Positions 13,269-61,574 of a stretch of 64,000 nucleotides of DNA are shown piece after piece. Made by a program: the position numbers and the translations under genes. The first letter of the stretch is position 1, and each line of letters begins with the position of its first letter. Below the pieces are notes generated by a model. It was not told where the DNA came from, searched no databases, and saw only the letters and a program-made list of their open reading frames with translations. Origin of the DNA: Escherichia phage vB_EcoM_RZ; sequence record MW598459; one strand, written 5' to 3'.

Positions 13269-13300
13269 GACTTTACTTCTGATTTAACTTGGGTTATAAT

Positions 13301-13323
13301 GCGCGTATAATATAAATACGCGC
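13301..13323. promoter_or_regulatory. palindrome GCGCGTAT-AATATAA-ATACGCGC containing a late-promoter TATAAATA (13311-13318)
   Basis: 8-bp perfect inverted arms; TATAAATA 18 nt upstream of the HNH ORF. Confidence 0.5.
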
Positions 13324-13335
13324 AAGGATTTACAA

Positions 13336-13941
13336 GTGATTATTTCTAAATTTGTTGAAGTTAAAATACGAAATCATGCAAAATGGTGGAGTGAATACTT
13401 AGGTAAAACTCTAACATACCATGATGTAATTTCTGTTCCAGTTGAACAAATGCCAGATAATAGTAATAAAAAGATTGAGTGTTCCTGTGATGAATGTGGG
13501 GTACATTTTGAGCGCGGCATTCAGCTGCTTCGTCGTGTTGATAAACATTTATGTAAAGCATGTTCAAGAAAAGATATTGGACAAAAGAATGTTATTGCGC
13601 AAGGTGGTGTACCAAGACCATGGCAACGCGGTGAAAAACATCATAGCTGGAAGGGTAATAAGCGCGAATTCTATTTGTATGCTCAACGCGTTCATGCATT
13701 GACAAGAGCAAAACATCTAAAGAATATTTGGTCAACATGGGAAAATGCAGATAAGATAGGAAAATGTGGAGAAGATGGTGCATATCAACTTGACCACAAA
13801 GTTTCTATTGCATATGGATTTTATAATCACATACCAGAGACTGTTATCGCTTCGCTCAACAATTTAGAAATAGTCACTTGGGAATCTAATAGGTCCAAAG
13901 GAAAATCAAATAGTATTGACTTATGGGATATATTATCCTGA
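13336..13941 (+). CDS. HNH-family homing endonuclease-like protein
   Basis: C-terminal QLDHKVSIAYGFYNHIPETVIASLNNLEIVTWESNRSKG fits an HNH/HNN motif; CxxC...CxxC zinc-finger-like pairs; GTG start after AAGGA; T4 has no gene between 18 and 19 as far as I recall. Confidence 0.6.
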   Translation: MIISKFVEVKIRNHAKWWSEYLGKTLTYHDVISVPVEQMPDNSNKKIECSCDECGVHFERGIQLLRRVDKHLCKACSRKDIGQKNVIAQGGVPRPWQRGEKHHSWKGNKREFYLYAQRVHALTRAKHLKNIWSTWENADKIGKCGEDGAYQLDHKVSIAYGFYNHIPETVIASLNNLEIVTWESNRSKGKSNSIDLWDILS

Positions 13942-13965
13942 CAGTAAATGTAATTAAGCAGTAAA

Positions 13966-20068: not shown

Positions 20069-20350
20069 TCATACCATACCATTTAAATGAACTTCTACCC
20101 GGCGCTTGATAAGGTCTCTGAAGTTAACATTGTTTTCTTGAAGTTTCAACCAGTTACCATTTTTATCTTTAGTGTGAGTAGAATAATTACCATTCCACCA
20201 GAAATCAGTGTCATATGCTAAGTTTTCATATTTTTTAACTAGTTTGTTCAGAGCATTACCATTAACACCATTTGGGTATTTGTTGACCAAGGCAATAACT
20301 TCAATTTCCAGATTTTTAAAGGTGTTCAGAAGGAAAGTTGCTTTGTTCAT
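20069..20350 (-). CDS. hypothetical protein, antisense to the late-gene cluster
   Basis: 93-aa ORF with SD GGAG and a sigma70-type early promoter upstream on the minus strand; no recognisable motif. Confidence 0.5.
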   Translation of the reverse strand: MNKATFLLNTFKNLEIEVIALVNKYPNGVNGNALNKLVKKYENLAYDTDFWWNGNYSTHTKDKNGNWLKLQENNVNFRDLIKRRVEVHLNGMV

Positions 20351-20390
20351 TTTTAAACTCCAGGTTTTGTTTGTTAACTCAGTATGGAAT

Positions 20391-20421
20391 CATTATGTCT
20401 TATCTTAATCTGGTTGTAAAC
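20391..20421 (-). promoter_or_regulatory. early-type promoter (GTTTACA-N17-CATAAT)
   Basis: reverse complement reads GTTTACAaccagattaagataagaCATAATg. Confidence 0.55.
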
Positions 20422-35513: not shown

Positions 35514-37574
35514 CTACGAAAGGAATTTAGGAGGAATAGCTTCCAAATTAATACAACTAGCAAGAATACCAAGACCTTGATTGACTTTCTTCGTTACCCC
35601 AGAGGATGCAAACGATGCAAAGTCAACAGATTCTACTGGCTCTTCTGTTTCCTCGCCCTGATAAACGACAAGCTCACCAGTTTCCATCAACACATCACCA
35701 TCATAGATAACTGCATTTTCATCCAGTTGGTCCGTAGTCTGGATATCAGCTTCCAGCATTTTGACGTTCGCGTTTCCTTGATACGAAGCATCAGTAATTT
35801 TGGTAATCTTAACTACAGTCCCACGAGGAAGAATAACTTCCTGCTCGGACGGGTTGCTTGACAATTCCCCAGGAACAATTACGTTAATTAAGTCCGCCCC
35901 AGAAATTTTCCAACCAACATGCATCATTACGTGGTCGCGGCGTGCATCCGGCATATCTGGTAAAACAATTTCGTCATCAGCCTGGAAAGATGTCCCATCA
36001 CGATAGTCCTGATGAACTGCAGCCATAGCAACGTTCGCCACCCAGCCACCAAAGATAATCGGTTTAAACGACGTTGATACATAGTTCCTGAAATAAAATA
36101 ATTTAGATTTCTTAATTTTATCAAATGTAGGAACGTTTAAATATTGACCACGCCAAAGAGTTGTATTAGGCGGCAACTTATGTCCAATTTCAAAGGCCGA
36201 ATCCAATTCCTTAATTGTTTCGACAACTCTGTCTAGATTTAGGAATTCAGCTTCTTCTTCATAATATTTGCCCATCAAATAATTATTAATATCGACATAG
36301 TTTGCTCCACAATAATCTGCAATTGCTTCTCGCTGACCATAATGGAAACGGTTGTCAGTATACCCTGCTGTGAAATTAAGAGTATTTTCTGATGCTTCTT
36401 CGGCAAAGTCTTTAACTGCAACACGAATGGCGCTTGTGTATTCTTTTTCCCAGAGCGAGGCTGCATAAGTGGCTGCATCCAGGTTAGGAGGAGCATCATT
36501 CATTTTTCTTTCGATAAATGCGGCTTTGCGAAGGTTAAGAATCTCTGCACATGATTCGGCAAAAATCTGCATCTGCTTCATACTGCCAACAGGAGCACGT
36601 TTAAGTTCACGATGCATACGGTTAAAAATTGGGTCAGAGTCTTCAACACGAATTTCTTCTTTCCAAACACCATTTGCTCGCATAGCCTCATCTGCTGCGC
36701 GCATACGAGCCATAGTATTCGTTTCGGAAGGTCGAACAAAAATTTCCAGTTCTTCATAATCATCGATAAGTTCTGCCGTAGCCGGTCGACTAAACTTAGC
36801 AGCTTCTGCATCAATTTCGTCCCAACCGTCTGGTACGGAATCACTTGGAGCGTACTGGGCTTGCGCAATAGCTCGGCGACTGATTTTAGTTTTCTGGGCA
36901 ACAGCAGCATCGGTCTTTTTGTTTGCTGCGTCAATCAGAACTTCGGCTGCGATTTCTTGTTTGGAGACTTGTGCGCCTGTATCTTTATTAGTGAATACAT
37001 CGCCGACTTTAGTTTCAACTTTTTGATATTTCTCAGGGACCGGTGGCATACCATCAACCGAAAGCAGGTCAACACCCTTTTTGTACATAATTACATAAGC
37101 GTTCTTTTTACCGAGGCCAGAAGCATTCGGAAGAACATGATAACGCCCGCTGGTTTTCATTTGAATCAGTCGATTCATAATACGAATAACAGCTTGGTCT
37201 TGTCCTTTCATCTTTTTGGATGGGAAACGGAACAAGACTACATCAGGTTTGCCTAGTTTAATGCTTTCCCAGACTGTAACAAAAATCAGGTTAATTGCAT
37301 CAAGAGGTTTTTCACCTAGACCACCCTTCAGAGGAACAGCATGGCCATGTGAAGTCCCGGAGAGCAGGAATACCTCGGCAATTGCATCACCGCGTTTATA
37401 CTGTTTAACTGTTTCTTTGCCCGTGAATTGCATCAAACGTGCCATAAGAGAATTGGTCCCAGGAACACCGAATTGCCAAACCTGTGGGACCTTGTATTTT
37501 GGATTCATATTAATGACAGGATAACCGAAGGCTTCGATATATTTGTCAAAGAGTTCATTTAATTGTTCAGACAT
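35514..37574 (-). CDS. alt: Alt ADP-ribosyltransferase
   Basis: 686 aa (T4 Alt 682 aa); position between gene 54 and DNA ligase; minus-strand late promoter upstream. Confidence 0.8.
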   Translation of the reverse strand: MSEQLNELFDKYIEAFGYPVINMNPKYKVPQVWQFGVPGTNSLMARLMQFTGKETVKQYKRGDAIAEVFLLSGTSHGHAVPLKGGLGEKPLDAINLIFVTVWESIKLGKPDVVLFRFPSKKMKGQDQAVIRIMNRLIQMKTSGRYHVLPNASGLGKKNAYVIMYKKGVDLLSVDGMPPVPEKYQKVETKVGDVFTNKDTGAQVSKQEIAAEVLIDAANKKTDAAVAQKTKISRRAIAQAQYAPSDSVPDGWDEIDAEAAKFSRPATAELIDDYEELEIFVRPSETNTMARMRAADEAMRANGVWKEEIRVEDSDPIFNRMHRELKRAPVGSMKQMQIFAESCAEILNLRKAAFIERKMNDAPPNLDAATYAASLWEKEYTSAIRVAVKDFAEEASENTLNFTAGYTDNRFHYGQREAIADYCGANYVDINNYLMGKYYEEEAEFLNLDRVVETIKELDSAFEIGHKLPPNTTLWRGQYLNVPTFDKIKKSKLFYFRNYVSTSFKPIIFGGWVANVAMAAVHQDYRDGTSFQADDEIVLPDMPDARRDHVMMHVGWKISGADLINVIVPGELSSNPSEQEVILPRGTVVKITKITDASYQGNANVKMLEADIQTTDQLDENAVIYDGDVLMETGELVVYQGEETEEPVESVDFASFASSGVTKKVNQGLGILASCINLEAIPPKFLS

Positions 37575-37599
37575 AATAGGTTCCTTATAAAATATGATG

Positions 37600-41458: not shown

Positions 41459-41824
41459 TTAGATATCAAATTCATTAAGAACTACATCAAAGATTGCTTC
41501 CAGGTGTTCAGGTTTTGCTTTGTTGCTCAGGATATGACGAATCCAAGTTTTAACCAGAAGCTTGCGATTAACACCATTCCAGCAAGGATGAGTCCCTAAA
41601 TCACGCTCACGGAAATCATCATCTAATGCGATTTTGAATACCGAACCTTCCATCGTGATTGAAAGAGTGATACCATTTTCAAATCGCATATAAACGTAGT
41701 TAGGAGTCATATACTGTTCAATTTCACACACTGAACCGTTTTGATGTTTCCACAAGCAAATAACTTCAGAAGAACCTGGGATGCAGTTAGAAACATATTT
41801 GCGTTCAAAGTTGATGTAGTTCAT
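41459..41824 (-). CDS. hypothetical protein
   Basis: 121-aa ORF with SD GGAG and promoter in inverted repeat upstream. Confidence 0.5.
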   Translation of the reverse strand: MNYINFERKYVSNCIPGSSEVICLWKHQNGSVCEIEQYMTPNYVYMRFENGITLSITMEGSVFKIALDDDFRERDLGTHPCWNGVNRKLLVKTWIRHILSNKAKPEHLEAIFDVVLNEFDI

Positions 41825-41851
41825 TTTATTCTCCAGTTGTTTTCATTTGTT

Positions 41852-41882
41852 GGTACAGGTCTATAATATCATAACCTGTACC
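41852..41882 (-). promoter_or_regulatory. early-type promoter whose -10 lies in the loop of a 9-bp inverted repeat
   Basis: GGTACAGGT-ctataatatcata-ACCTGTACC; GTTTAC -35 upstream on minus. Confidence 0.45.
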
Positions 41883-41895
41883 AAAGTAAACTGTT

Positions 41896-42264
41896 TTATG
41901 CGACTTTAATCCAATTATCTAAATTTAATTCACCCTTAGCTTTCATTTTTTCAATCAGAAGGTCTGCAGTGGTGCGACCATTTTGATACCATGTAACATC
42001 TTCAGAATAACCAGTTTCTTCATCTTCATAGGTCTTACAACGAATCTTACCAATAATCAAAGTTTTCAGTTCGTAGGTATCACCAGTAAAAAAGTTTGTT
42101 ACCATAATTTTCCAAGAGAAGTCATCAGAAGGACCTTCTGGAGTCATGCAACCTACAAATTCAAACTGCTCTTTATACAAGTGCCATTGCATCTCTTTAG
42201 TTTCGATTGCTTTGTAGCCGTCGTGGTCTTTACCTTTGATGTATGAGTTAAGATTGATTTTCAT
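41896..42264 (-). CDS. hypothetical protein
   Basis: 122-aa ORF; conserved leader with GGAG SD. Confidence 0.5.
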   Translation of the reverse strand: MKINLNSYIKGKDHDGYKAIETKEMQWHLYKEQFEFVGCMTPEGPSDDFSWKIMVTNFFTGDTYELKTLIIGKIRCKTYEDEETGYSEDVTWYQNGRTTADLLIEKMKAKGELNLDNWIKVA

Positions 42265-42304
42265 TTTATGCTCCAGTGTTTTATTGTGTAACTCAGTATG
42301 AAAT

Positions 42305-42334
42305 CATTATGCACTGGACCAACCCTGTTGTAAA
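42305..42334 (-). promoter_or_regulatory. early-type promoter (GTTTACA-N17-CATAAT)
   Basis: reverse complement: GGTTTACAacagggttggtccagtgCATAATg. Confidence 0.55.
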
Positions 42335-42354
42335 CCCCTTTATGGAAAATAAAA

Positions 42355-42380
42355 AAGGGACTCCGAAGAGTCCCTGAACT
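42355..42380 (-). terminator. intrinsic terminator (minus strand)
   Basis: GGGACTC-CGAA-GAGTCCC hairpin followed on minus by TTTTTTATTTT. Confidence 0.7.
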
Positions 42381-45981: not shown

Positions 45982-46041
45982 TTTGTTTTCCTCATGTGTT
46001 GATGAAATTCATTATACACCATCCATGGTGAAAGTAAACAC

Positions 46042-48208: not shown

Positions 48209-48212
<4 letters not shown>

Positions 48213-48691
48213 ACACCAAGCTCCTTATAAAGTTCTTCGCGGCAAGTTTTAAGGATTTTACCAGTTTCATAAGCTGCACTTTCAGAAACATCACCAAGTG
48301 CAGCGGCAGATTGCATTTGACCATGGCGTTTAGCTGCATATTCAAAACTTTTTACTAGCTCACGAATACGTTCTTTTTCATTGTACTCTTCAATGAATTC
48401 AGGGTATTCCCAAACTGGGCGCATCATACGATACCACTGTTGGATGGTAATATAATTACTTCCATCCAGATTAATAATTTGCGAAGGCTTAATAGCGCCC
48501 GGAGCATAAAAAGTTACCTGTCTTACTACATCAATACCGTCCACCATAGCCCAAGCAAAATCGAAAGTTGCCTTCTTTTCAATTGGTGTACTTGCACAGG
48601 ACCCTAATTTTAAGAGCTTTTGTAATGCAGGGGATTTAACACCTGAAATGTATTCAGGCTTAGCCACAAAACTGTTATCACGTAATGTCAT
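48209..48691 (-). CDS. hypothetical protein
   Basis: 160 aa from MTLRDNSF; SD GAGGAAA; early promoter lies inside the longer ORF so the upstream 39 codons are rejected. Confidence 0.5.
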
Positions 48692-48721
48692 AATATTTTC
48701 CTCAAATATTTTATAATCCGT

Positions 48722-48765
48722 GGGAGCATTATACTCTGCTCCCATAAGTTTGTACACTACTTTCC
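48722..48765 (-). promoter_or_regulatory. early-type promoter with -10 inside inverted repeat GGGAGCA/TGCTCCC
   Basis: reverse complement: GTGTACAaacttatGGGAGCAgagTATAATgCTCCC. Confidence 0.5.
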
Positions 48766-50008: not shown

Positions 50009-50242
50009 TTAGTAGCGGTTATAACCCCGGGGACCAAAAGAGTTGGCACCCAGGCGCTCATCTTTCTTTTTGGCTCTTGCTCTAAACCCGGAATCACCTG
50101 TTTGAGCTTTCAGTTCTTTTAACAATTTGGCCTTTAGGTCAGTAATGAAACCAATCCGGCGGTCTCCCTTATAGACATAGATTCCATCATTTCTGTCACC
50201 ATATGCCTTTGTAACTCTGTCATTTGTAATTAAGTTTAACAT
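50009..50242 (-). CDS. short paralogue of the N-terminal domain of the alc-like protein
   Basis: 77 aa; NDRVTKAYGDRNDGIYVYKGDRRIGFITDLKAKL vs alc NEMIVNEYGDRHDGIYVYKGTKKIGLMTDLRKKL; own promoter and SD. Confidence 0.5.
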   Translation of the reverse strand: MLNLITNDRVTKAYGDRNDGIYVYKGDRRIGFITDLKAKLLKELKAQTGDSGFRARAKKKDERLGANSFGPRGYNRY

Positions 50243-50261
50243 GTTTTGGTCCTCATCAGTA

Positions 50262-50297
50262 GTTGATGGAACCATTATGTATAGAAAGAAGGGGCTT
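50262..50297 (-). promoter_or_regulatory. early-type promoter (GTGTACA-N17-CATAAT)
   Basis: reverse complement: GGTGTACAagccccttctttctataCATAATgg. Confidence 0.5.
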
Positions 50298-50312
50298 GTA
50301 CACCCCTTTTTA

Positions 50313-51449
50313 TTATTCAGGAAGGATTACTTCCGCCTGGTAGTCTAACGGAATGTAAAGTTTATGATTTTTAAGGAAAACTTTATTGATTTGAGCAATC
50401 GTTTGTTCAGTTTCCTGTGGGCGTTGATAGGTGTTCATTAATACGGAGAACAATCCCGGATATGGTTTACATAACTCTTGACCTTTAATCGCAAACTCGC
50501 GACGGTCTTTTCCTGCTAACTGTTTTTGTGCATCAAGCAACAGTCCAAGAGTGTTGGACAGATAATCCAGATGTGTTGCAGTAAAGGCAGTAACTTTTTC
50601 ACGAGCATAAGTATCGCCAGTAAACATGGCAATAACATCATCCGCGCCGCCAGCAACAACAACTTCAAACAGTCGCTCATTATTATTAATGGAGTCTTTA
50701 GTATGATGCAGAGCACAATACCATTCTGTTTTCATCTTGAACTTCTGACCGTTAGCCATCTCATAGACGAAGCCTTCAATCTCTTTCATACCGCGAACAT
50801 TCTCAATGGTTGCCGGGTCATATGCTTCAACCAGGAAAGGACGAAGCGCTGCATCTTTGAACAGCTCCTGATAAGGAATATATTCACCAGTTTCATTATG
50901 ACGAACGTTCAGTAAAATCAGGTCACGTTCCTGGTAAGGCAAAACAATGCGGTTGGTCGGTGCAACATATTCCATGTTGCATGTATAACCAGCTTCAGTG
51001 ATTTCAGTCACACGAGCCCTGAATGCACTGCGATGTTCTTGTTTAAACACCTGCAAGGATTCAGCTGCTTGGGAGCTTTTGATTGACCCTTTGGATTTAA
51101 AGGCGATATTGGTCTGGTCCATATAAGTGGAAACCAAACTACCATCAGCTTTTGCAGTAACCAGGACAACTTCATCAAGGTTAAGGTCCATGGTCATTGG
51201 ATTCTCACCCAGATTAAAGAATTTTTCCATAGGACGAGCAGCAATGCGAACTGGACCATTGTCATCCATTTCAAACATAATGCCACGGCACTCCAGCGCA
51301 TCATCAAGAAGCCAATCACTATAGGAAGCATAGTTATAGCTAAAGATGCGGAACTTAGTTTCAAATGGAGAAACAAAATCCGTATAGAAAAACTTACCTT
51401 TATCGGATTCGGCACAAAGCTTCATTAAGTTATCATATAATTCAATCAT
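50313..51449 (-). CDS. rnlA: RNA ligase 1
   Basis: 378 aa; FRIFSYNYASYSDWLLDDALECRGIMFEMD...PMEKFFNL matches remembered T4 Rnl1. Confidence 0.9.
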   Translation of the reverse strand: MIELYDNLMKLCAESDKGKFFYTDFVSPFETKFRIFSYNYASYSDWLLDDALECRGIMFEMDDNGPVRIAARPMEKFFNLGENPMTMDLNLDEVVLVTAKADGSLVSTYMDQTNIAFKSKGSIKSSQAAESLQVFKQEHRSAFRARVTEITEAGYTCNMEYVAPTNRIVLPYQERDLILLNVRHNETGEYIPYQELFKDAALRPFLVEAYDPATIENVRGMKEIEGFVYEMANGQKFKMKTEWYCALHHTKDSINNNERLFEVVVAGGADDVIAMFTGDTYAREKVTAFTATHLDYLSNTLGLLLDAQKQLAGKDRREFAIKGQELCKPYPGLFSVLMNTYQRPQETEQTIAQINKVFLKNHKLYIPLDYQAEVILPE

Positions 51450-51882: not shown

Positions 51883-53061
51883 TTATAGATATTTACGGAA
51901 ACCAGCAAGAACGTTCTCATCGACGTCATTGTCAATCTGGGCTACCAGGTAAGCAGACAACTCAACTTCTTGTGGTGCTGATTGCACATTATCAGAGTTA
52001 AGATATTCGCGAATCCATGGAATCGGGTGCTTAGTAGATTCTAACACGATTTCACACGGGAGACCGCATTGCTTCATACGAGAAACCGTCAGGTAATCGA
52101 TGAACCGGTTAAGAATCTCGACGCTCAGCCCAGGGAGTCCACCATCTTTAAACAGATGCACGGCCCATTCTTTTTCCTGGCGATTAACTTCCATGAAAAT
52201 GGCTGCGGCTTCTGCTTCACATTCGTGAGCGATTTTAACCCATTCGTCACCGTCAACACCAGTCTGCAGCTGACGAAGAATATATTGGGTCCCCTTAAGG
52301 TGGAGCTGTTCATCACGGGCGATGAACTTCATTATCTTCGCATTGCCTTCCATGATTTCCATGTTCTTATGGAAGTTGAAAGTGCAAGCAAAAGATACAT
52401 AAAAACGAATAGCTTCCAGGGCATTAATGACATGCAGACAGAGATAAAGAGACTTCATCAATGCTCGTTTGGCGATAGCTTCTTGTTTGATAGCTCGTTC
52501 CAAACGTTCGTCCGCTTCGGGAGTTTCTTTGGCCAGTTCAACAAAAGCAATCTGGTTTTGCCATTGACGAGTTTTATTCAGAACATCATCATAGTAATGG
52601 CCAATGGATTCTGCACGCTTCATGATTGCATCATCTAACAGGATTTCGTCGAATACCTTCGCCGGGTCCGTATAGAGATTTCGCATGATGTGCGTATAAG
52701 AACGAGAGTGAATTGTCTCGCTGAATGTCCAGGTCTGAATCCATGTATCAAGACTTGGGTCAGAAACTAATGCGGCTAATGCTGCAGCTGGAGCACGACC
52801 CTGGATACTATCCAGAAGTGATTGGTATTTCAGGTTGTTGGTAAAAATATTTTGTTGATGTTCAGGAAGCTTATTAAATTGAGCTCCGTCCATCATCAGG
52901 TTTACTTCCTCTGGACGCCAGAAGAATGATAATTGCTTTTCTGTTAATTCTTCGAAAACTTTATGACGCTGGATATCATAACGGGCAATCCCCAATCCTG
53001 AACCGAAGAACATTGGCTCGGCTAAAACATCCACCGGAGTGGTATTAAAAACTGTACTCAT
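51883..53061 (-). CDS. nrdB: ribonucleotide reductase small subunit NrdB (uninterrupted)
   Basis: 392 aa continuous ORF (T4 NrdB 388 aa); diiron-site E..H motifs; no intron. Confidence 0.9.
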   Translation of the reverse strand: MSTVFNTTPVDVLAEPMFFGSGLGIARYDIQRHKVFEELTEKQLSFFWRPEEVNLMMDGAQFNKLPEHQQNIFTNNLKYQSLLDSIQGRAPAAALAALVSDPSLDTWIQTWTFSETIHSRSYTHIMRNLYTDPAKVFDEILLDDAIMKRAESIGHYYDDVLNKTRQWQNQIAFVELAKETPEADERLERAIKQEAIAKRALMKSLYLCLHVINALEAIRFYVSFACTFNFHKNMEIMEGNAKIMKFIARDEQLHLKGTQYILRQLQTGVDGDEWVKIAHECEAEAAAIFMEVNRQEKEWAVHLFKDGGLPGLSVEILNRFIDYLTVSRMKQCGLPCEIVLESTKHPIPWIREYLNSDNVQSAPQEVELSAYLVAQIDNDVDENVLAGFRKYL

Positions 53062-53786
53062 TTATTAACCTTTATCCTTCCTCTGACCCATCCATCGGGG
53101 ATAATTTCAGAGGATTCAATTAATTTATTTGTAAACCCGTCATTAATACAGATTTTACCACGGGCACCTTTATATTGTCGTGGAGTTATTTTATCAAATG
53201 TGGGTTGAAGCGAATATGACCATCTAAATCCATAGGCATATTGAAATTTTCCACTCGCACAATACTTGATGTTTGATGCGTTTCCATTTACGGACCGAGC
53301 TGCTTCTTGCAATGACCTAAATTTTTCAACAAATTCACCATCAAGAGTAAATTGATAAATTTCTGTAGATGGAACAGCTAACTTATTCTTTTCACTTACA
53401 ATTTGCTTAGATTCTTCACTGTGATGCTTACCCAACATACCACGGGGATGTGGGTTATTTTTCCAGTGTTCCTTAAAGAATTCAGAATTTGCTTTGGCAA
53501 ATAGCTTTCGATGGAAACTATACAAGTTATTATTAATACGATTTCCAGCTTTATCCGTTGCCATTAAAGTTAGGGCCGAGACCAATCCAAAATGACCGGG
53601 ATTTATTTTGCATAAAAGCAAATGAGCAATAAAATGTTCTCGAGCTGTTAACTCGACAAGGTTTGTTCTTTCATCAGTACCGCCCATACATCTTGGGATA
53701 ATATGATGAATCTCTTTATATTCGGTTAAAGGTTCCCGGGTTTTACCCCGGGATATTAAATTATTATAAATGTTTTGATAATTCAT
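53058..53786 (-). CDS. HNH homing endonuclease (MobE-like position)
   Basis: EIHHIIPRCMGGTDERTNLVELTAREHFIAH (HNH); GKHHSEESKQIVSEKNK (NUMOD3-like); IYQFTLDGEFVEKFRSLQEAARSV (NUMOD1-like). Confidence 0.7.
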   Translation of the reverse strand: MNYQNIYNNLISRGKTREPLTEYKEIHHIIPRCMGGTDERTNLVELTAREHFIAHLLLCKINPGHFGLVSALTLMATDKAGNRINNNLYSFHRKLFAKANSEFFKEHWKNNPHPRGMLGKHHSEESKQIVSEKNKLAVPSTEIYQFTLDGEFVEKFRSLQEAARSVNGNASNIKYCASGKFQYAYGFRWSYSLQPTFDKITPRQYKGARGKICINDGFTNKLIESSEIIPDGWVRGRIKVNK

Positions 53787-56041
53787 TACAGTTTACATGC
53801 CGAGCAATCATCAGCTTTTGGCATTTCCAATTCATAATCGTCAGTTCCCGAGCCATCACGAGTATTGTGATAGTAAAAATTCTTGATTCCGTAGTACCAA
53901 CCATACATCAAGTCGTCAAGCATAACTGACATCGGAACTTTTCCTTTCGGATAATTCTGCGGGTCATAATATGTGTTTGCTGATGCTGACTGACAAATCC
54001 ATTTCAACATAATCGCAACTTGGGTCAGATAAGGTTTGTTACCTTGCTTAGCTAACACCCATGCGTAATCGTACAATCCTTTATTGTGCTCAATATTGGG
54101 CACGACTTGATTAAAGGAACCCTCTTTTGACTCTTTAATAGAGACTGGTCCACGCGGAGGTTCGATACCGTTTGTACTGTTAGAAACTTGGGAAGATGAC
54201 TCACAAGGCATAAGTGCTGATAATGTGCTATTACGGATGCCATGTTCAACCAGGTCTTCCCGCAACTGCGCCCAGTCACAAACGTAGTTTGGAGCTGCGA
54301 TTTGGTCAATCTTTTTATTGTACCAGTCGATAGGTAATTCGCCTCGAGCCCAACGAGTGTCTGAATAATATTCGCAAGGTCCTTTTTCTTTGGCGAGCTT
54401 GATTGATGCTCGGATAAGGCCATATTGTAATCTCTCGAACAGTTCATGTGTTAAATCGTTTGCATCAGCATAGGAAGCGAAATTGCTTGCCAACCATGCA
54501 GCATAGTTAGTAACCCCAACACCCAGGTTGCGCCGTTTTTTGGCTTTCAGAGCTTCTTTAACCGGATAACCCTGGTAGTCCAACAGATTATCAAGAGCAC
54601 GAACTTGTACTTCGGCCAGCTCGTTAATTTTATCTTGGTCCTGCCAGTCAAAACTATCCAGAACAAATGCAGACAATGTGCACAATCCGATTTCAGCATC
54701 TTCGCTGTTCACATCAGTAGTCGGGATTGCAATTTCGCAGCAAAGGTTTGATTGACGAATCGGAGCCTTATCACGGATGAACGGAGTGTAGTCATTCACG
54801 TTATCGACGAACTGCGGATAAACCCTGGCTGTACCGGAACGTTCGGTCATGAATAATTCAAATACATCTTTTGCTTTGATGCGTTTCTTACGAACCGTCG
54901 GGTCTTTTTCTAAAGCTTCATATAACTCGCGGAATTTATCTGGGTTATCAAAATATGAATAATACAATTCCCCGCCAGCTTCGTGTGGACTAAACAGGGT
55001 GATGTAATCATTCTTAGCCAGTCGTTCCATCATCAGGTTATTCAGCTGGACACCATAGTCCATATGTCTGATGCGGTTTTCTTCAACGCCCTTGTTGTTC
55101 TTCAGAACGAGTAAATTTTCAACTTCCAAATGCCAAATAGGATAATAAGCAGTAGCAGCGCCGCCACGGATTCCACCTTGTGAACATGATTTAACAGCTG
55201 TTTGGAAATGTTTCCAGAACGGAATAACACCAGTATGCTTGACTTCGCCCATACCGATTTTAGAACCTTCAGCACGAATCATGCCAACGTTGATACCGAT
55301 ACCTGCACGCTTACTGATATATTCGATGATTGAATTAGCAGTTTTATTAATTGACTTCAGGGAGTCCGCCGCTTCGATAACCACACATGAACTGAACTGC
55401 CTGGTAGGTGTTCTGGCGCCCGCCATGATAGGTGTGGGCAACGAAACCTGTCGGGTGGATACTGCATCATAAAAACGGCAAACGTGCTTCAGACGGTCCG
55501 TTGGTTCATCCTGGTGCAGTGCCATGCCAATGGCCATGATAGCGAACTGTGGAGTCTCATAGATTTTCCCAGTGGTTTTATCTTTAACCAGGTATTTCTC
55601 TTTAAGCTGCATTGCGCCTGCATAAGTCAGGTCAAAATCGCGTTCGTGCTTAATACGAGATTCCAGGTAAGTAATCTCTTCAGCGGAATAGCTTGACAAC
55701 AGCTCCGGGTCATATTTACCTTCATTAACACAATAAGAAATCTGGTCAATAAAAGAACGTGGCTCAAATTGTCCATAAACATCTTTACGCAGAGCAAACA
55801 TCGTAGCCTTCGCTGCAACGTATTGGTAATCTGGTTCTTCAACCGAGATAAGCCCAGCAGATACTTTGATGATAACCGTCTGAATATCGCGAGTAGTCAT
55901 ACCATCGCGCAGATGTGGTTTAATTGTTTCGTATAATTCGTATGGGTCGATATTAGTTCCTTCACATGACCAGGAAAGAACTTTAATAATTTTTTGGCCA
56001 TCAAAATCTTGAGATACACCACTACTTTTTTGTACTTGCAT
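53786..56041 (-). CDS. nrdA: ribonucleotide reductase large subunit NrdA
   Basis: 751 aa (T4 754 aa); class Ia RNR motifs (NLCCEI active-site Cys region, C-terminal CSACKL). Confidence 0.9.
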   Translation of the reverse strand: MQVQKSSGVSQDFDGQKIIKVLSWSCEGTNIDPYELYETIKPHLRDGMTTRDIQTVIIKVSAGLISVEEPDYQYVAAKATMFALRKDVYGQFEPRSFIDQISYCVNEGKYDPELLSSYSAEEITYLESRIKHERDFDLTYAGAMQLKEKYLVKDKTTGKIYETPQFAIMAIGMALHQDEPTDRLKHVCRFYDAVSTRQVSLPTPIMAGARTPTRQFSSCVVIEAADSLKSINKTANSIIEYISKRAGIGINVGMIRAEGSKIGMGEVKHTGVIPFWKHFQTAVKSCSQGGIRGGAATAYYPIWHLEVENLLVLKNNKGVEENRIRHMDYGVQLNNLMMERLAKNDYITLFSPHEAGGELYYSYFDNPDKFRELYEALEKDPTVRKKRIKAKDVFELFMTERSGTARVYPQFVDNVNDYTPFIRDKAPIRQSNLCCEIAIPTTDVNSEDAEIGLCTLSAFVLDSFDWQDQDKINELAEVQVRALDNLLDYQGYPVKEALKAKKRRNLGVGVTNYAAWLASNFASYADANDLTHELFERLQYGLIRASIKLAKEKGPCEYYSDTRWARGELPIDWYNKKIDQIAAPNYVCDWAQLREDLVEHGIRNSTLSALMPCESSSQVSNSTNGIEPPRGPVSIKESKEGSFNQVVPNIEHNKGLYDYAWVLAKQGNKPYLTQVAIMLKWICQSASANTYYDPQNYPKGKVPMSVMLDDLMYGWYYGIKNFYYHNTRDGSGTDDYELEMPKADDCSACKL

Positions 56042-56074
56042 GTTTTCCTCTATAGTTCAAAAGGGTTGGGAACC

Positions 56075-56320
56075 TTAAATTGTCTCTGGTAGTTCCGAAG
56101 TCATTTCATCATTATATTCTTCTTCTGACTGGACAGTGATGTCAAAATATGACTGGACGTCACCGGCTGAATCATGACAGTAGACACGTTCATGTCTTTT
56201 GGCCAGAAATTTGATTCCGTCAATAGTGATATAAGAATTTGGGGCAGGTAAATCCTGTTCGGTAAATTGTGGCATTTCAAAAATGACTTCGCCTGACTGG
56301 CGTTTAAATCGTAAATTCAT
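56075..56320 (-). CDS. hypothetical protein
   Basis: 81-aa acidic ORF. Confidence 0.45.
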   Translation of the reverse strand: MNLRFKRQSGEVIFEMPQFTEQDLPAPNSYITIDGIKFLAKRHERVYCHDSAGDVQSYFDITVQSEEEYNDEMTSELPETI

Positions 56321-56379
56321 AATTTCCTCTCATTAAATTTTAAATAATTATATCACGGTGTCCTGGAGCGGAATCGTAT

Positions 56380-56679
56380 TTATGTACCCAAATCCTCGAG
56401 CGAAAAGGTGTCTTTGAAAAGTTTGTTAACGACCAGAGCGATAATATCACCATGACATGACTTCGGTTTGCATGTGCAGGCTAATCGCATTCCGCGGAGA
56501 GTTTCAAGGTGTTCTCTTTTGATTTCACCCGATTTAATCTTTGCTATGAAATATTCTTTAAAGTTTTTTATGTTTTCTTCTCGGGTACCATCTTTATATG
56601 GGTTTCCCCACATGGTACCCCGTTGAATATTCACATCAAAGTCGGATTGATATTTGTTAACAACCCGACAGGCTTTCAT
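56380..56679 (-). CDS. hypothetical protein with Cys/His cluster
   Basis: 99-aa ORF; CTCKPKSCHGD motif. Confidence 0.45.
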   Translation of the reverse strand: MKACRVVNKYQSDFDVNIQRGTMWGNPYKDGTREENIKNFKEYFIAKIKSGEIKREHLETLRGMRLACTCKPKSCHGDIIALVVNKLFKDTFSLEDLGT

Positions 56680-56741
56680 AATAGGAAGTTAAGCCCGACC
56701 ATTACGGCCAGAAATAAAATACCGGCAATTTGAATTTTCAT
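56677..56741 (-). CDS. micro-ORF encoding 21-aa hydrophobic peptide
   Basis: MKIQIAGILFLAVMVGLNFLL; start overlaps upstream stop (TAATG), stop overlaps downstream start (ATGA); speculative. Confidence 0.3.
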
Positions 56742-56937
56742 TATACCTCGACAATAAACCAGATAGACCGATTGAAATCATCATATTCATACGATTTAAT
56801 CACACGCATAACATAAAGTTCTTTGTTCTGGACAAAAATCGTTGTTTTCTCTTTAGGCAGTTCATCGAGACTTATGTTCATTTTTTCAAACAGCACCTCA
56901 TTGGTGCCGTATCTATTGTTTACTATACGAATATTCA

Positions 56938-56938: not shown

Positions 56939-58713
<1,775 letters not shown>

Positions 58714-58714
<1 letters not shown>

Positions 58715-58905
58715 TATATTTTCCTCAAATATTTTTTAACCATATAATATTGAAATTCAAACATTTTGGAATCAATTACCCAAATCTGACGTTTAGGACA
58801 CTCATTCAAACGCACCGCGGAACATCCAGAGGAAAGGAATGAATACTGTTCCTTTTCTGTTTCAGAAAGACATGTTCTTAAAAAGCGGAAAAATAAATCA
58901 TGCAT
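58714..58905 (-). CDS. hypothetical small protein (63 aa)
   Basis: C-terminal part of a longer ORF; ATG overlaps the stop of the 82-aa ORF. Confidence 0.35.
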
Positions 58906-59146
58906 TTTTATTTGCCTTAACGACTTTCCAGTCAGCTTTAAATTGGTCAACATCAGAGTGGTGAATCCAGAAACCAGATGAGCTACCATCTTCATAAAGA
59001 GGACAACCATCACACTCATCTTTCCAACCCATTGCACACAAAGTTTCTTCAGCTTTTTCCAGAGCTTCTGGATTGTTACCCTGGATTGTGAAATACCATT
59101 TACCTTTAACTTCTGAATCTTTGATGCTCTCACGTTGTAATTTCAT
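58898..59146 (-). CDS. hypothetical protein
   Basis: 82-aa ORF with conserved leader/SD and early promoter. Confidence 0.5.
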   Translation of the reverse strand: MKLQRESIKDSEVKGKWYFTIQGNNPEALEKAEETLCAMGWKDECDGCPLYEDGSSSGFWIHHSDVDQFKADWKVVKANKNA

Positions 59147-59185
59147 TTTATTCTCCAGTTTTGTTGTGTAACTCAGTATGGGACC

Positions 59186-59214
59186 ATTATGTCATAGCCC
59201 CATTTGGTTGTACA
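59186..59214 (-). promoter_or_regulatory. early-type promoter (GTGTACA-N17-CATAAT)
   Basis: reverse complement: GTGTACAaccaaatggggctatgaCATAATgg. Confidence 0.55.
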
Positions 59215-59221
59215 CTACTTT

Positions 59222-59488
59222 TTAAATTTTATCAAGCCATTTTCCAAGTTTAGTCATTTCCTTGGTGGCCTTTTCCATACTTCTGAACTTAATTAATAAA
59301 GGATGAACATCCATACCCATCACCAGATTGGTTGCAAGACTGTGCTCACCAACAAGCCATAATGAGTATGTTTGAACATCCAGACCATAATTTCTGTCTT
59401 TATGAACTCGTACACCCATTACTTCAAACTGTTCGCTTGCTTTTTCTACTGCATCCAGGAAATCATCTTTAGTCATGTTAGACCCCAA
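59222..59488 (-). CDS. hypothetical protein
   Basis: 88-aa ORF. Confidence 0.45.
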   Translation of the reverse strand: MGSNMTKDDFLDAVEKASEQFEVMGVRVHKDRNYGLDVQTYSLWLVGEHSLATNLVMGMDVHPLLIKFRSMEKATKEMTKLGKWLDKI

Positions 59489-59846
59489 AAGTTGCTTTAA
59501 TCAGTGCAATGACTTCTGCTGCATTTTTGTGATTGACTTGCACATGAATGGTTTGGGTATCAACATCAGGAGCATCACCATCAACTTCCAGGAAGTGACG
59601 GAATTCCCATTCACCAAGTTCAAAGTACTCATCAGAATCACCCATACTATTCAGGATGGTGCCATCTTTCATTTCAACTTTTTCAACAAAATAATCGCCA
59701 TCAATAAAGCACATGTCCAGGACTTTGAAGGAACTACCATGTTGTTCCATCAACTTAATCATACGCGAATTGTCATCAGGACTACCAGCGATGAATTGTT
59801 TTTTGGCAGCAGGGTCTAATACGTAAAATTTACCAGTTTCCATCAT
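59478..59846 (-). CDS. hypothetical protein, paralogue family member A
   Basis: 122 aa; shares DYFEL.E.EF..F and C-terminal IALIKA/IELLQKA with ORF 60196-60558. Confidence 0.5.
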   Translation of the reverse strand: MMETGKFYVLDPAAKKQFIAGSPDDNSRMIKLMEQHGSSFKVLDMCFIDGDYFVEKVEMKDGTILNSMGDSDEYFELGEWEFRHFLEVDGDAPDVDTQTIHVQVNHKNAAEVIALIKATFGV

Positions 59847-59871
59847 TTTAATTTCCTCATATTCAATTGAG

Positions 59872-59906
59872 GGAACATATTATCATGTTCCAGTTGGTTT
59901 GTATAC
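59872..59906 (-). promoter_or_regulatory. early-type promoter with -10 inside inverted repeat GGAACAT/ATGTTCC
   Basis: reverse complement: GTATACAaaccaactGGAACATgaTAATATGTTCC. Confidence 0.5.
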
Positions 59907-60133
59907 TAAGCTTGAATCAAGCCCATATAAAATTCAGCATCTTCCGGGTGCATCCCTTCGCAATATTCATTTTGCATAAAGCGGGTAAGGTCTTTGAGAG
60001 GACCTTGAACTTCAATTTGAATACTAAAGAATTGGGTATCTTTAATGTAAGTCATACACAAAGAAGGATACCGATTACGAATAACTTCGTAAGTGTATTC
60101 AAAATCAACGATATCAATATTAACCTTGGCCAT
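59906..60133 (-). CDS. hypothetical protein
   Basis: 75-aa ORF. Confidence 0.45.
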
Positions 60134-60156
60134 TTTATTTTCCTCATGTAGTTGAT

Positions 60157-60195
60157 GGGTCTATAATAACATAATCATAGACCCGTTGTAAACTG
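60157..60195 (-). promoter_or_regulatory. early-type promoter with -10 inside inverted repeat GGGTCTAT/ATAGACCC
   Basis: reverse complement: GTTTACAacGGGTCTATgattatgtTATTATAGACCC. Confidence 0.5.
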
Positions 60196-60558
60196 CTATT
60201 TGAAAGCTTTTTGTAGAAGTTCAATGATTTGGTCGACGTTATTAGCATCTACAACACAATTAATAGAAACCGCCCCCGAAGGTGTTTTTGTATAATTGGA
60301 GTATTCACGGAAGCAATAAAACTCTTCTTCGCTAAGTTCAAAATAATCATCACCCATGCCATCATCATTATAGATTGCACCATTAGCACAAATGATTTCG
60401 GTTACATAATCATAGCCGTCTGCACTTGATATTGATTTAACTTCAAACCAACCGCCATTTTCTTGGATGATGTCGACCATACTAGCATTCGATGAACTAA
60501 TATCAATGAAAGATTTAATACGATGTGGATTGAACTCATATTTTTTGCCGATTTCCAT
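60196..60558 (-). CDS. hypothetical protein, paralogue family member B
   Basis: 120 aa; paralogous to ORF 59478-59846. Confidence 0.5.
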   Translation of the reverse strand: MEIGKKYEFNPHRIKSFIDISSSNASMVDIIQENGGWFEVKSISSADGYDYVTEIICANGAIYNDDGMGDDYFELSEEEFYCFREYSNYTKTPSGAVSINCVVDANNVDQIIELLQKAFK

Positions 60559-60595
60559 TTTTATTTCCTCAGTTGTTATCAGTAGTTGATGGAAT

Positions 60596-60626
60596 CATTA
60601 TGCCTTAGCTCAAAGGACTTGTACAC
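60596..60626 (-). promoter_or_regulatory. early-type promoter (GTGTACA-N17-CATAAT)
   Basis: reverse complement: GTGTACAagtcctttgagctaaggCATAATg. Confidence 0.55.
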
Positions 60627-60639
60627 TACTTTTTGAAAA

Positions 60640-60668
60640 TAAAAAGGGGACCCGAAGGTCCCCTTATA
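60640..60668 (-). terminator. intrinsic terminator after gene 32
   Basis: GGGGACCCGAAGGTCCCC hairpin followed on minus by TTTTT. Confidence 0.75.
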
Positions 60669-61574
60669 TTAAAGGCCAGCCAGCAGGTCATCAAGACCAT
60701 CATCGGAAGGCTCTGGAGTGCTTGGGGCAGTCGCAGTGCGTTCAGACTTAGCAGGTTTGCTGGAAGTGAAGTCTTCCATATCTTTATCGAAATCGTCCAG
60801 GTCAGCACCCAGTTTATCGGCTTGTGCAGCAGCTTTAGAAGCAGCGCCACCGAGAGCAGCTGTGCCCATTACTTTAGAGAATTTCTTCTGATTCTCTTCA
60901 AGAGATTTAAATACCAGCAATTCATTCAGGTCAGACATGTCGTCCCAAAGTTTTTTCTGGAATGCTTCATCATTGATACCGGCGATTTCAGACTGGTTCA
61001 TGAATTTGGAATCATCGTAGTTTTTATAACCGGAAACCAGTTTAGATTTCAGTACGAAGTTTGCACCATCAAACGGACAAGTTACATCAACAGCTTCTTC
61101 GCCCATGTCAACATCAACTTCAACCATCTGGTTGATTTTGTCCATGATTTTCTTACCAAAGCGATATTTGAATACTTGGCCTTCGTTAGACGGAACAGCA
61201 GGGTCTTTAATGACCAGGATGTTAGCCCAGTAAGAAGTATTACGCTTCAGTTTACGATATTCAGATTCGTTTGTATTGTACAGGTCATTCTTATTCATGT
61301 ACGCACACACAGGGCAGTTTTCATAATCGCCGTGAGTAGAAGTACAGTTTTCAATATACCATTGACCAGCATTTTTAAAGCCGTGGTTAACGAGCTTGAT
61401 GAATGGAGATGGATTTTCTTCATTCTTAGAAGGCAGGAAACGAATAACCGCAGAGCCGACGCCATCAGTATCTTTCAGTTTCCATTCTTTTTTATCGTCA
61501 GAAGAGAAACCAGCGCCACCTTTCAGAGCGTTAAGGGAAGCAGCCAGGTCAGCAGGGTTTTTACGTTTAAACAT
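60669..61574 (-). CDS. 32: single-stranded DNA-binding protein gp32
   Basis: MFKRK...EWKLK...[11 protein letters not shown]...LVNHGFK...WYIENC.STHGDY; acidic C-terminus; matches remembered T4 gp32 (301 aa). Confidence 0.95.

Follow-up and report, generated by a model that had tools for sequence, protein, structure and literature searches.

Positions 59,147 to 59,214 of the DNA analysed here, a stretch of 64,000 nt from Escherichia phage vB_EcoM_RZ (MW598459; hereafter the window), lie in the gene 32-frd region and span exactly the distance from the -35 hexamer (59214-59209) of a predicted early promoter to the base preceding an ATG (59146), which opens the open reading frame (ORF) of a frd.1 homologue (DUF5417). 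An earlier note on this DNA had described nearly the same block before the ORF starts at 20350, 42264 and 59146, and a second block shared by the starts at 50242 and 60558, the latter being that of frd.2a. The genes behind all five blocks are on the minus strand, which is the early direction of T4-like phages. Window pieces 58000-61500 and 19001-44000 were searched by megablast for relatives, and the Escherichia and Shigella phages P479, TH41, UPEC01, VR20 and SP18 were found at 95-97% identity. All five are T4-like and belong to the genus Gaprivervirus (Straboviridae, Tevenvirinae). Here we explore the block before frd.1, one copy out of cassette families that have 10-18 copies per genome.

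The 23-nt pattern CATAATGRTTCCATACTGAGTTA, with up to three mismatches allowed and 100 dinucleotide shuffles as control, matches the window exactly three times, always on the minus strand (20375-20397, 42289-42311 and 59169-59191), and matches 0/100 shuffles (expected 0.00). The block is therewith present at all three starts for which it had been claimed. In the alignment of these copies, hereafter type A, conservation falls into three stretches: invariant GT.TACAAC at the -35 box (in the context AAAG..GT[GT]TACAAC), the near-invariant -10 with the next ~25 nt (CATAATG.T..CATACTGAGTTA..AA.AAAAC), and invariant AAAATGAA at the start codon (GGAG..AAAATG). The 17-nt spacer between the boxes is poorly conserved (35-65% identity). 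The consensus of the earlier note is mostly right, with small departures represented by GATTTCAT and ACAATAAAAC at 42311 and GGTCCCAT at 59191. Its view that the conserved unit is the leader itself holds for the leader but is too narrow, since a whole modular cassette of promoter, leader and Shine-Dalgarno (SD) region is conserved. The module AAAAAGTAG followed by TGTACA is common to the cassettes of type A and of types B and C defined below.

The second pair, with -10 boxes at 50279 and 60602, shows 83% identity across the 24 nt after the -10 and stands as a pair, but a further member with TATTAT-AGACCCATCAACTACATGAGGA at 60168 had been overlooked; looser relatives of this set, hereafter type B, are found at 46016 and 35487. 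The proteins encoded behind the five blocks are mutually unrelated, as had been stated: blastp gave no match below E=0.3 among them and they belong to five different PHROG families. All five sites have a T4-type early promoter (G-TGTACA or G-TTTACA, 17 bp, CATAAT), with an UP-like tract (AAAAAGTAG or ATAAAAG) before the -35 and (T/C)CC before the predicted +1, and their leaders of 23-35 nt end in GGAG or GAGGA-N6-8-ATG.

These two sets are real but turn out to be samples of larger families. The earlier note had proposed an alignment of leaders, their folding and a comparison with related phages as checks. The complete SP18 genome was scanned with -35, -10 and SD-ATG as sole criteria, and the ~34 cassettes of its early strand sorted into discrete families according to what follows the -10, with 13 copies of type A (CATACTGAGTTA...), 18 of type B (CCATCAAC[T]AC...) and three of type C (CCCAC[TG]GGA..., with a conserved spacer as well). 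BLAST finds the 50-nt type A block at 10-13 places per genome in ~31 Gaprivervirus genomes and the type B block at 10-14 places per Gaprivervirus genome. Elsewhere the type A block occurs as single copies in a few other phages, such as Dhakavirus IME341, whose sole copy sits before the frd.1 orthologue. T4 was not matched by either block at E<=1, as judged by BLAST of the blocks and not by a scan of the T4 genome itself. Weak 40-nt matches in jumbo phages (121Q group) were at chance level (E ~0.6) and were discarded. In both the window, which holds ~12 cassettes, and SP18, the cassettes precede small ORFs (frd.x, 30.x, e.x, nrdC.x, ndd.x).

The promoter half of the cassette resembles the T4 early promoters, for which the consensus of Liebig & Rueger and Wilkens & Rueger has been reviewed (PMC2988021, PMC1524935). 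These reviews describe an UP-like A-tract, a consensus that extends beyond the hexamers to a C-rich stretch from -3 to -1, and 57 predicted early promoters in RB69. Likewise, the cassettes have an A-rich UP region, a GT[T/G]TAC -35, a 17-bp spacer, a TATAAT-like -10 and C-rich -3 to -1, and they stand before early-strand ORFs in many copies per genome. They differ in that the -10 is mostly CATAAT, that conservation runs well into the transcript, and that BLAST gives no T4 match to either the type A or the type B block. The T4 promoter consensus covers the part up to +1 and not the family-specific transcribed sequence.

The earlier note had also recognised in the SD the GGAG motif cleaved by the T4 endoribonuclease RegB, and the sequence bears this out more strongly than claimed. 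RegB/S1 works efficiently on a single-stranded RNA target of 11 nt, for which GGAGAAUAAAA is the optimum and GGAGRAYARAA the consensus (Durand et al. 2006, PMC1702504), and the leader at 59146 holds this full optimum as GGAGAATAAAA. The window has two exact copies of the 11-mer (59156-59146 and 41834-41824), each on the early strand and running into an ATG; shuffled versions of the window matched the consensus 0.32 times on average. SP18 has 12 exact copies, every one of them on the early strand and directly adjoining an ATG, with 8/12 in type A leaders. The sites at 59146 and 41824 thus match exactly the RegB/S1 sites in the SD of T4 early mRNAs (PMC1702504; reviewed in PMC3014915), whereas in the window the other two type A copies depart from the optimum at positions 5-7 and most type B copies use GAGGA.

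Folded from the predicted +1, the leaders do no better than shuffled sequences and are near-unstructured (minimum free energy between -0.9 and -3.6 kcal/mol, z-score between -0.24 and +1.96), and the RegB/S1 site is predicted to be single-stranded within the translation initiation region, abutting the ATG. A 4-bp ATCA/TGAT hairpin in type B and a UCCA/UGGA pairing in type A were too weak to count. Predicted structure appears in read-through RNA. At 59146 AUGGGGCUAU and AUGGUCCCAU form a 10-bp stem around the -10 (-21 kcal/mol, z -2.4), which would exist only in read-through RNA or single-stranded DNA; at 42264 the spacer sequence GGUCCAGUG pairs with CACUGGAGC, which includes the SD; and at 50242 one stem encloses the -35, while in a second GGUUCC (-6 to -1) pairs with the SD GAGGACC (z -3.8). 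The cassettes of 42264 and 60558 additionally come after strong terminator hairpins. Pairing between spacer and post-10 sequence in SP18 beats at least 96% of shuffled spacers in 15/34 typed cassettes, and the stems show compensatory pairs (gggata/tatccc, gggagc/gctccc, ggggtc/gacccc, tcagtatg/catactga).

The pairing at 50242 involves a 77-aa ORF resembling the N terminus of Alc, whose SD (50240-50315, minus strand) is predicted to pair with the GGUUCC between -10 and +1. Because the cassette's own transcript lacks this arm, translation of the ORF may be limited to transcripts from its own promoter. Such a restriction is known for the T4 genes e, soc and 49.

The earlier note had further suggested that the leaders mark gene cassettes joined by recombination, and comparison of related phages, by blastn between the window and SP18 and more widely over 59700-60330, revealed shuffling at cassette boundaries. 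There are 11 indels between window and SP18: four homing-endonuclease genes (two in the window, two in SP18), one alt duplication in SP18, and six of small genes, three of which have joints inside cassette parts. First, the frd.3 module (window 59860-60131) is missing from SP18, with the joint in a repeated ATGAGGAAA(A/T)TAAAATG of two leaders; the SD-ATG repeat ATGAGGAAATTAAAATG of frd.2b is the partner of this deletion joint. Second, gp30.6A of SP18 is placed between two terminator hairpins just upstream of the 42311 type A promoter and was gained or lost. Third, a 160-aa ORF (48209-48691) has been inserted precisely where a type C leader meets the start codon of the gene homologous to SP18 gp237. 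The inserted ORF ends in an ATGA stop/start overlap with this gene, which is thereby left without direct access to the leader.

The arrangement of the frd region varies among relatives. The order 32-frd.2a-frd.3-frd.2b-gp251-frd.1 of the window is found in 21 records; frd.3 is missing in SP18, P896 and phage 212, and lies between the gp251 homologue and frd.1 in VR25 and JS98 (in VR7 by annotation). For Dhakavirus records and VR7 homology is confined to ~59912-60205, that is, to the frd.3 ORF with its own promoter cassette. The frd.1 ORF (ATGAAATTACAACG...) follows a type A cassette in the window, SP18, VR20 and IME341, and a type B cassette (GTTTACA-acagggctatggtagt-GATACT-atagccttATCAACTtgaGGAGAATAAAATG) in VR25 and JS98. 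Between these two arrangements homology stops at ...AAATGGCTTGATAAAATTTAAAAAGTAGTGTACAA, the -35 module, and resumes at GGAGAATAAAATG; by this sequence comparison the 59146 site is a swapped cassette, with its joints in modules shared by the families. Thus both the swap at frd.1 (type A versus type B) and the relocation or deletion of frd.3 have joints inside cassette modules, as the suggested recombination would have it.

Multi-copy elements of this kind have been described as PeSL (promoter-early stem-loop) cassettes, in RB49 and phi1 (Arbiol et al. 2010, PMC2839356) and in PST/T4 and nt-1/KVP40 (Comeau et al. 2014, PMC4122927). A PeSL consists of an AT-rich tract, sigma-70-type -35 and -10 boxes, a stem-loop that may lie upstream, over the -35, between the boxes, over the -10 or behind it, mostly between the boxes or over the -10, and an SD with ATG at the 3' end (PMC2839356, PMC4122927); PeSLs occur in many copies, mainly in hyperplastic regions upstream of ORFans, and are tied to indels between close relatives (same sources). 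Promoter and terminator activity and the formation of mini-circles are their experimental hallmarks. All the sequence features are present here: a repeated AT-tract, sigma-70 -35 and -10 boxes, a stem-loop and, for a small ORF, its SD and ATG, located in hyperplastic regions at indels or replacements between close relatives. The promoter T[GT]TACA-N17-[CT]ATAAT fits the PST/T4 form TTTACW-N17-TAYWAT. The stem-loop takes the form of the 10-bp stem around the -10 at 59146, a stem around the -35 at 50242 and upstream terminators at 42264 and 60558; the copy number (~34 in SP18, ~12 in the window), the 3' SD and start codon and the location at indel and replacement joints agree as well. Differences are the genus, the stem sequences, the sharing of one family core with Dhakavirus and Morganella phage MP1, and the division into families by the first ~12-25 transcribed nt, a division that does not appear in the PeSL text available. 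Probably, then, the block is a copy of a PeSL-type early promoter-leader-SD cassette of a Gaprivervirus phage. Our literature search found no paper on early promoters of Gaprivervirus and no description of such cassettes in the genus.

A working mechanism can be proposed for such a PeSL-type cassette. Host sigma-70 RNA polymerase would bind the A-rich tract, the T[GT]TACA -35 and the CATAAT -10 and start ~7 nt downstream, at the A at 59179. The 33-35-nt leader would efficiently load 30S subunits and S1 on the GGAG SD, since it is unstructured and C/A-rich, and the small gene would be expressed right after infection. Once RegB accumulates, RegB with S1 would probably cut GGAGAATAAAA between GG and AG, because the SD lies in this optimal, single-stranded RegB/S1 target; the message would be silenced, which would leave a transient burst. 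Upstream terminators or spacer/post-10 stem-loops may shield the cassette against read-through transcripts, in which they would at times also mask the SD. Finally, since dozens of cassettes share modules of 15-45 nt (AAAAAGTAGTGTACAA, the family-specific transcript start, GGAGAATAAAATG), these may act as homology patches by which phage recombination deletes, moves or swaps units of cassette plus small ORF.

Several points weigh against this reading. The +1 has been placed from spacing alone. The perfect 11-mer is found in only 1/3 window type A copies: GGAGCATAAAA (42264) has C at position 5, which is very rare in good RegB substrates (PMC1702504), and GGAGTTTAAAA (20350) has UUU at positions 5-7. 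The regB gene is not in the window, and its presence is taken only from annotated relatives (SP18 55443-55940, beyond the stretch that matches the window). The stem is absent or weak in about half of the cassettes, including that at 20397. The joints analysed are few, and whole-gene indels must break in intergenic DNA anyway. Moreover, the PeSL model leaves the conservation of CATACTGAGTTA above that of the promoter hexamers unexplained.

This last point deserves attention. The 12-mer CATACTGAGTTA is invariant in 21/22 copies from Gaprivervirus, Dhakavirus IME341 and Morganella phage MP1 (Gualtarvirus), whereas the -10 (CATAAT, TATAAT or TATTAT), the -35, the spacer and the five nt before it vary in the same copies. 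MP1 has at least five type A cassettes inside 2.5 kb, annotated solely as promoters found by MEME, and the MP1 paper merely lists 12 such promoters. The cassette is kept before three orthologous pairs with 44-52% protein identity (MP1 gp120/SP18 gp147, MP1 gp118/SP18 gp148 and MP1 gp119+gp116/Frd.1). The GAGTTA half of the 12-mer is almost never part of a stem. It is conceivable, though rather unlikely, that CATACTGAGTTA is a separate cis signal carried on the cassette, which a phage or host factor would recognise as a DNA operator or as a 5'-RNA tag and which would mark an immediate-early sub-regulon with a possible role in early shut-off, message stability or translation control. With the same reserve, such a sub-regulon might be common to Gaprivervirus and Gualtarvirus and include one Dhakavirus locus, and might be tied to early shut-off or message fate. 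The invariance, the retention before diverged orthologues and the avoidance of stems would all suit a signal of this sort, and the mechanism that shuts off T4 early promoters is described as not understood (PMC3014915). Against it, there is no candidate factor and no Rfam match, and by folding the RNA is unstructured. BLAST finds the motif lacking in T4, so any such function would be lineage-specific. Similar genes are driven by cassettes of types B and C, which lack CATACTGAGTTA, and frd.1 works with either type. Concerted evolution together with cassette transfer between co-infecting phages could also keep the copies alike.

Rfam gave no family at gathering score anywhere in the window, and a permissive scan of 58800-60800 gave only chance-level matches. 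In a scan of IMG/VR for CCATACTGAGTTAMCAA, true cassettes were found only in the isolate genomes VR20, VR25, VR26, IME341 and MP1; ten matching metagenome contigs were rejected as chance 17-mers lacking promoter context. One MP1 cassette (L007, 940-990) carries right after its -35 the spacer sequence AACTCAGTATG, the exact reverse complement of the type A core CATACTGAGTT, which gives a 10-11-bp stem around the -10; this is the only copy seen with the GAGTT half paired.

A second alternative, which we regard as improbable, is that the copies are alike only through recent duplication or gene conversion of paralogous intergenic regions, the leaders being unselected, neutral scars of recombination. 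Some pairs share even the spacer (SP18 168210/61943 and 48066/47489), leaders are homogenised by lineage (GGAGAATAAAATG in Gaprivervirus, GGAGTCNAAAATG in MP1), and in the window three small indels within 20 nt set the frd.1 leader apart from its orthologues in SP18, VR20 and IME341, so that it resembles more closely its paralogue at 42264. Yet in most copies the spacer has diverged to 35-65% identity though the flanking -10 and leader remain at 79-83%, the 12-nt core persists between genera with ~50% identity in orthologous proteins, hairpin arms co-vary, and the SD region matches a functionally defined 11-mer. The simplest reading of the sequences would be that CATACTGAGTTA is under selection. 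Concerted evolution acts as well, as seen from the SD part, which is homogenised by lineage, and from the patchy differences between orthologous leaders.

That the similarity is nothing but a generic T4-type early promoter plus SD consensus, the outcome that the earlier note named as fatal to its proposal, is very improbable. All early cassettes do share the -35, a -10 with G behind it, a C-rich stretch from -3 to -1, which has been reported in RB69, RB49 and 44RR too (PMC1524935), and an A-rich SD-ATG spacing. However, the families are discrete, since in the 24 nt that follow the -10 identity is 79-83% among type A copies and only 21-54% between them and the other early cassettes of the window; the 23-mer was found three times against 0.00 expected; and the 50-nt type A block that recurs 10-13 times per Gaprivervirus genome has no BLAST match in T4. 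Least probable of all is that an autonomous mobile element (MITE-like or homing) carrying small ORFs has its end in the block: it is multi-copy, tied to the presence or absence of small ORFs, and the frd.3 module changes position between phages, but the cassettes have no terminal inverted repeats, target-site duplications, transposase or endonuclease genes, homing endonuclease genes lie elsewhere (13336-13941 and 53058-53786) and explain other indels, and the joints fall in shared homology patches, as homologous recombination predicts. We therefore retain the PeSL-type cassette as the explanation of the block. Its parts and those of the other window cassettes are listed in Table 1.

Table 1. 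Parts of the frd.1 cassette and of further early cassettes in the window.
Feature	Coordinates	Strand	Details
A-rich upstream tract, UP-element-like	59225-59215	minus	TTAAAAAGTAG
-35 hexamer of frd.1 cassette	59214-59209	minus	TGTACA (T4-type GT[GT]TAC), 17 nt from -10
Predicted stem-loop (folding)	59203-59178	minus	AUGGGGCUAU-GACAUA-AUGGUCCCAU; -10 in loop and 3' arm
-10 hexamer of frd.1 cassette	59191-59186	minus	CATAAT
Type A initial transcribed sequence	59180-59169	minus	CATACTGAGTTA; 21/22 copies, three genera
Predicted +1	59179	minus	A, 7 nt past -10; placed by usual spacing
C/A-rich unstructured leader part	59168-59157	minus	CACAACAAAACT
SD region	59156-59146	minus	GGAGAATAAAA, exact RegB/S1 optimum; last A = A of ATG (59146-59144)
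frd.1 homologue	58898-59146	minus	82 aa, DUF5417, PHROG 1254
Type A cassette	20348-20420	minus	-35 20420-20415, -10 20397-20392, SD GGAGTTTAAAA 20361-20351, ATG 20350
ORF behind 20397 cassette	20069-20350	minus	93 aa, PHROG 6003
Terminator hairpin upstream of 42311 cassette	42374-42351	minus	GGGACTCTTCGGAGTCCC + T-run
Type A cassette incl. terminator	42262-42374	minus	-35 42334-42329, -10 42311-42306, SD GGAGCATAAAA 42274-42264, ATG 42264
gp30.8 homologue behind 42311 cassette	41896-42264	minus	PHROG 1507
Type B cassette	50240-50302	minus	-35 50302-50297 within hairpin AGGGGTGTACAAGCCCCT, -10 50279-50274, transcript start CCATCAACTACTGAT, SD GAGGA, ATG 50242
Alc N-terminal-like ORF behind 50279 cassette	50009-50242	minus	77 aa
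Gene 32 terminator hairpin	60665-60644	minus	precedes 60602 type B cassette
Type B cassette incl. terminator	60556-60665	minus	-35 60625-60620, -10 60602-60597, SD GAGGA, ATG 60558
frd.2a behind 60602 cassette	60196-60558	minus	PHROG 622
Mobile module, type B-like cassette + frd.3	59906-60192	minus	-35 60192-60187, -10 60168-60163, ATG 60133
frd.3	59906-60133	minus	75 aa
frd.2b cassette	59844-59905	minus	-35 TATACA 59905-59900 abutting frd.3 stop; -10 TAATAT 59882-59877 inside hairpin GGAACAT..ATGTTCC; SD-ATG ATGAGGAAATTAAAATG
Type C cassette	48689-48756	minus	hairpin gggagc..gctccc spans -10
Extra ORF after type C leader	48209-48691	minus	160 aa, PHROG 4482
Further early cassette	41822-41890	minus	hairpin ggtacaggtt..aacctgtacc spans -10
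Second exact RegB/S1 11-mer	41834-41824	minus	GGAGAATAAAA; abuts ATG of 41822-41890 cassette

A second promoter-like match within the leader (GTTACA-N16-TAAAAT, 59172-59145; also at 42268) was judged to be a by-product and set aside, because the A/T-rich SD-ATG spacing yields it and its start would fall inside the ORF. Downstream of frd.1, ~180 nt without an obvious ORF separate it from the next gene (58715-58897, minus strand); beside this stretch the 3' end of frd.1 diverges from SP18 and VR20. The IME341 annotation has a similar gap, and the stretch ends in the leader-like AAAATATTTGAGGAAAATATAATG. The cassette and ORF at 20069-20420 are embedded in antisense orientation between two late genes, 23 (major head protein) and 24, an arrangement equally seen in the annotations of SP18 and JS98.

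Other differences between window and SP18 concern larger segments. On the plus strand, a 201-aa ORF with HNH-type motifs (13336-13941) between the genes of gp18 (tail sheath) and gp19 (tail tube) is probably a free-standing homing endonuclease; it belongs to a ~680-bp segment (13269-13950) absent from SP18 and is preceded by a palindromic promoter-like gcgcgTATAATataaatacgcgc at ~13295-13330. Between nrdA and nrdB a 242-aa HNH-type ORF (53058-53786, minus strand; IHHIIPRCMGG..., MobE-like) is absent from SP18 at that position (gap 53064-53777). SP18 has tandem alta and altb where the window has one alt, a difference of ~1.9 kb (SP18 123872-125763 against window 37574-37581) that is unrelated to the cassettes. 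Between nrdA and td, ~880 bp (56052-56928, minus strand) hold three small ORFs of 81, 99 and 65 aa (nrdA.1-like in VR20); this interval is only 112 bp in SP18, and no early cassette was seen at the joints.

Two further systems invite comparison. T-even internal-protein (IP) loci are flanked by repeated early promoter elements thought to confine shuffling to a locus (Repoila et al. 1994, as discussed in PMC2839356); there, too, repeated early promoter elements bracket interchangeable small genes, and according to that discussion they belong to the IP loci, whereas the families described here are genome-wide. Integron gene cassettes and the Botstein-Campbell 'linker' sequences of lambdoid phages likewise place short conserved sequences between interchangeable genes, with modular exchange and expression in a new context. 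Here there is no site-specific recombinase or attC-like site, and exchange appears to be general homologous recombination on patches of 15-45 nt.

The element is thus of a known kind, to which we add its division into families in Gaprivervirus, a leader with the exact RegB/S1 optimum, the example of frd.1 and frd.3, and the invariance of a 12-mer across genera. The locus is a clean example of how small accessory genes of T4-like phages are organised as modules of promoter, leader, predicted RegB-sensitive SD and ORF that are reshuffled via short shared sequences: frd.1 is seen with two different cassettes, and its neighbour frd.3 at two positions or absent. The cassette families could help to annotate early units, to predict RegB-controlled genes in Gaprivervirus and to predict sites at which engineered insertions would be tolerated.

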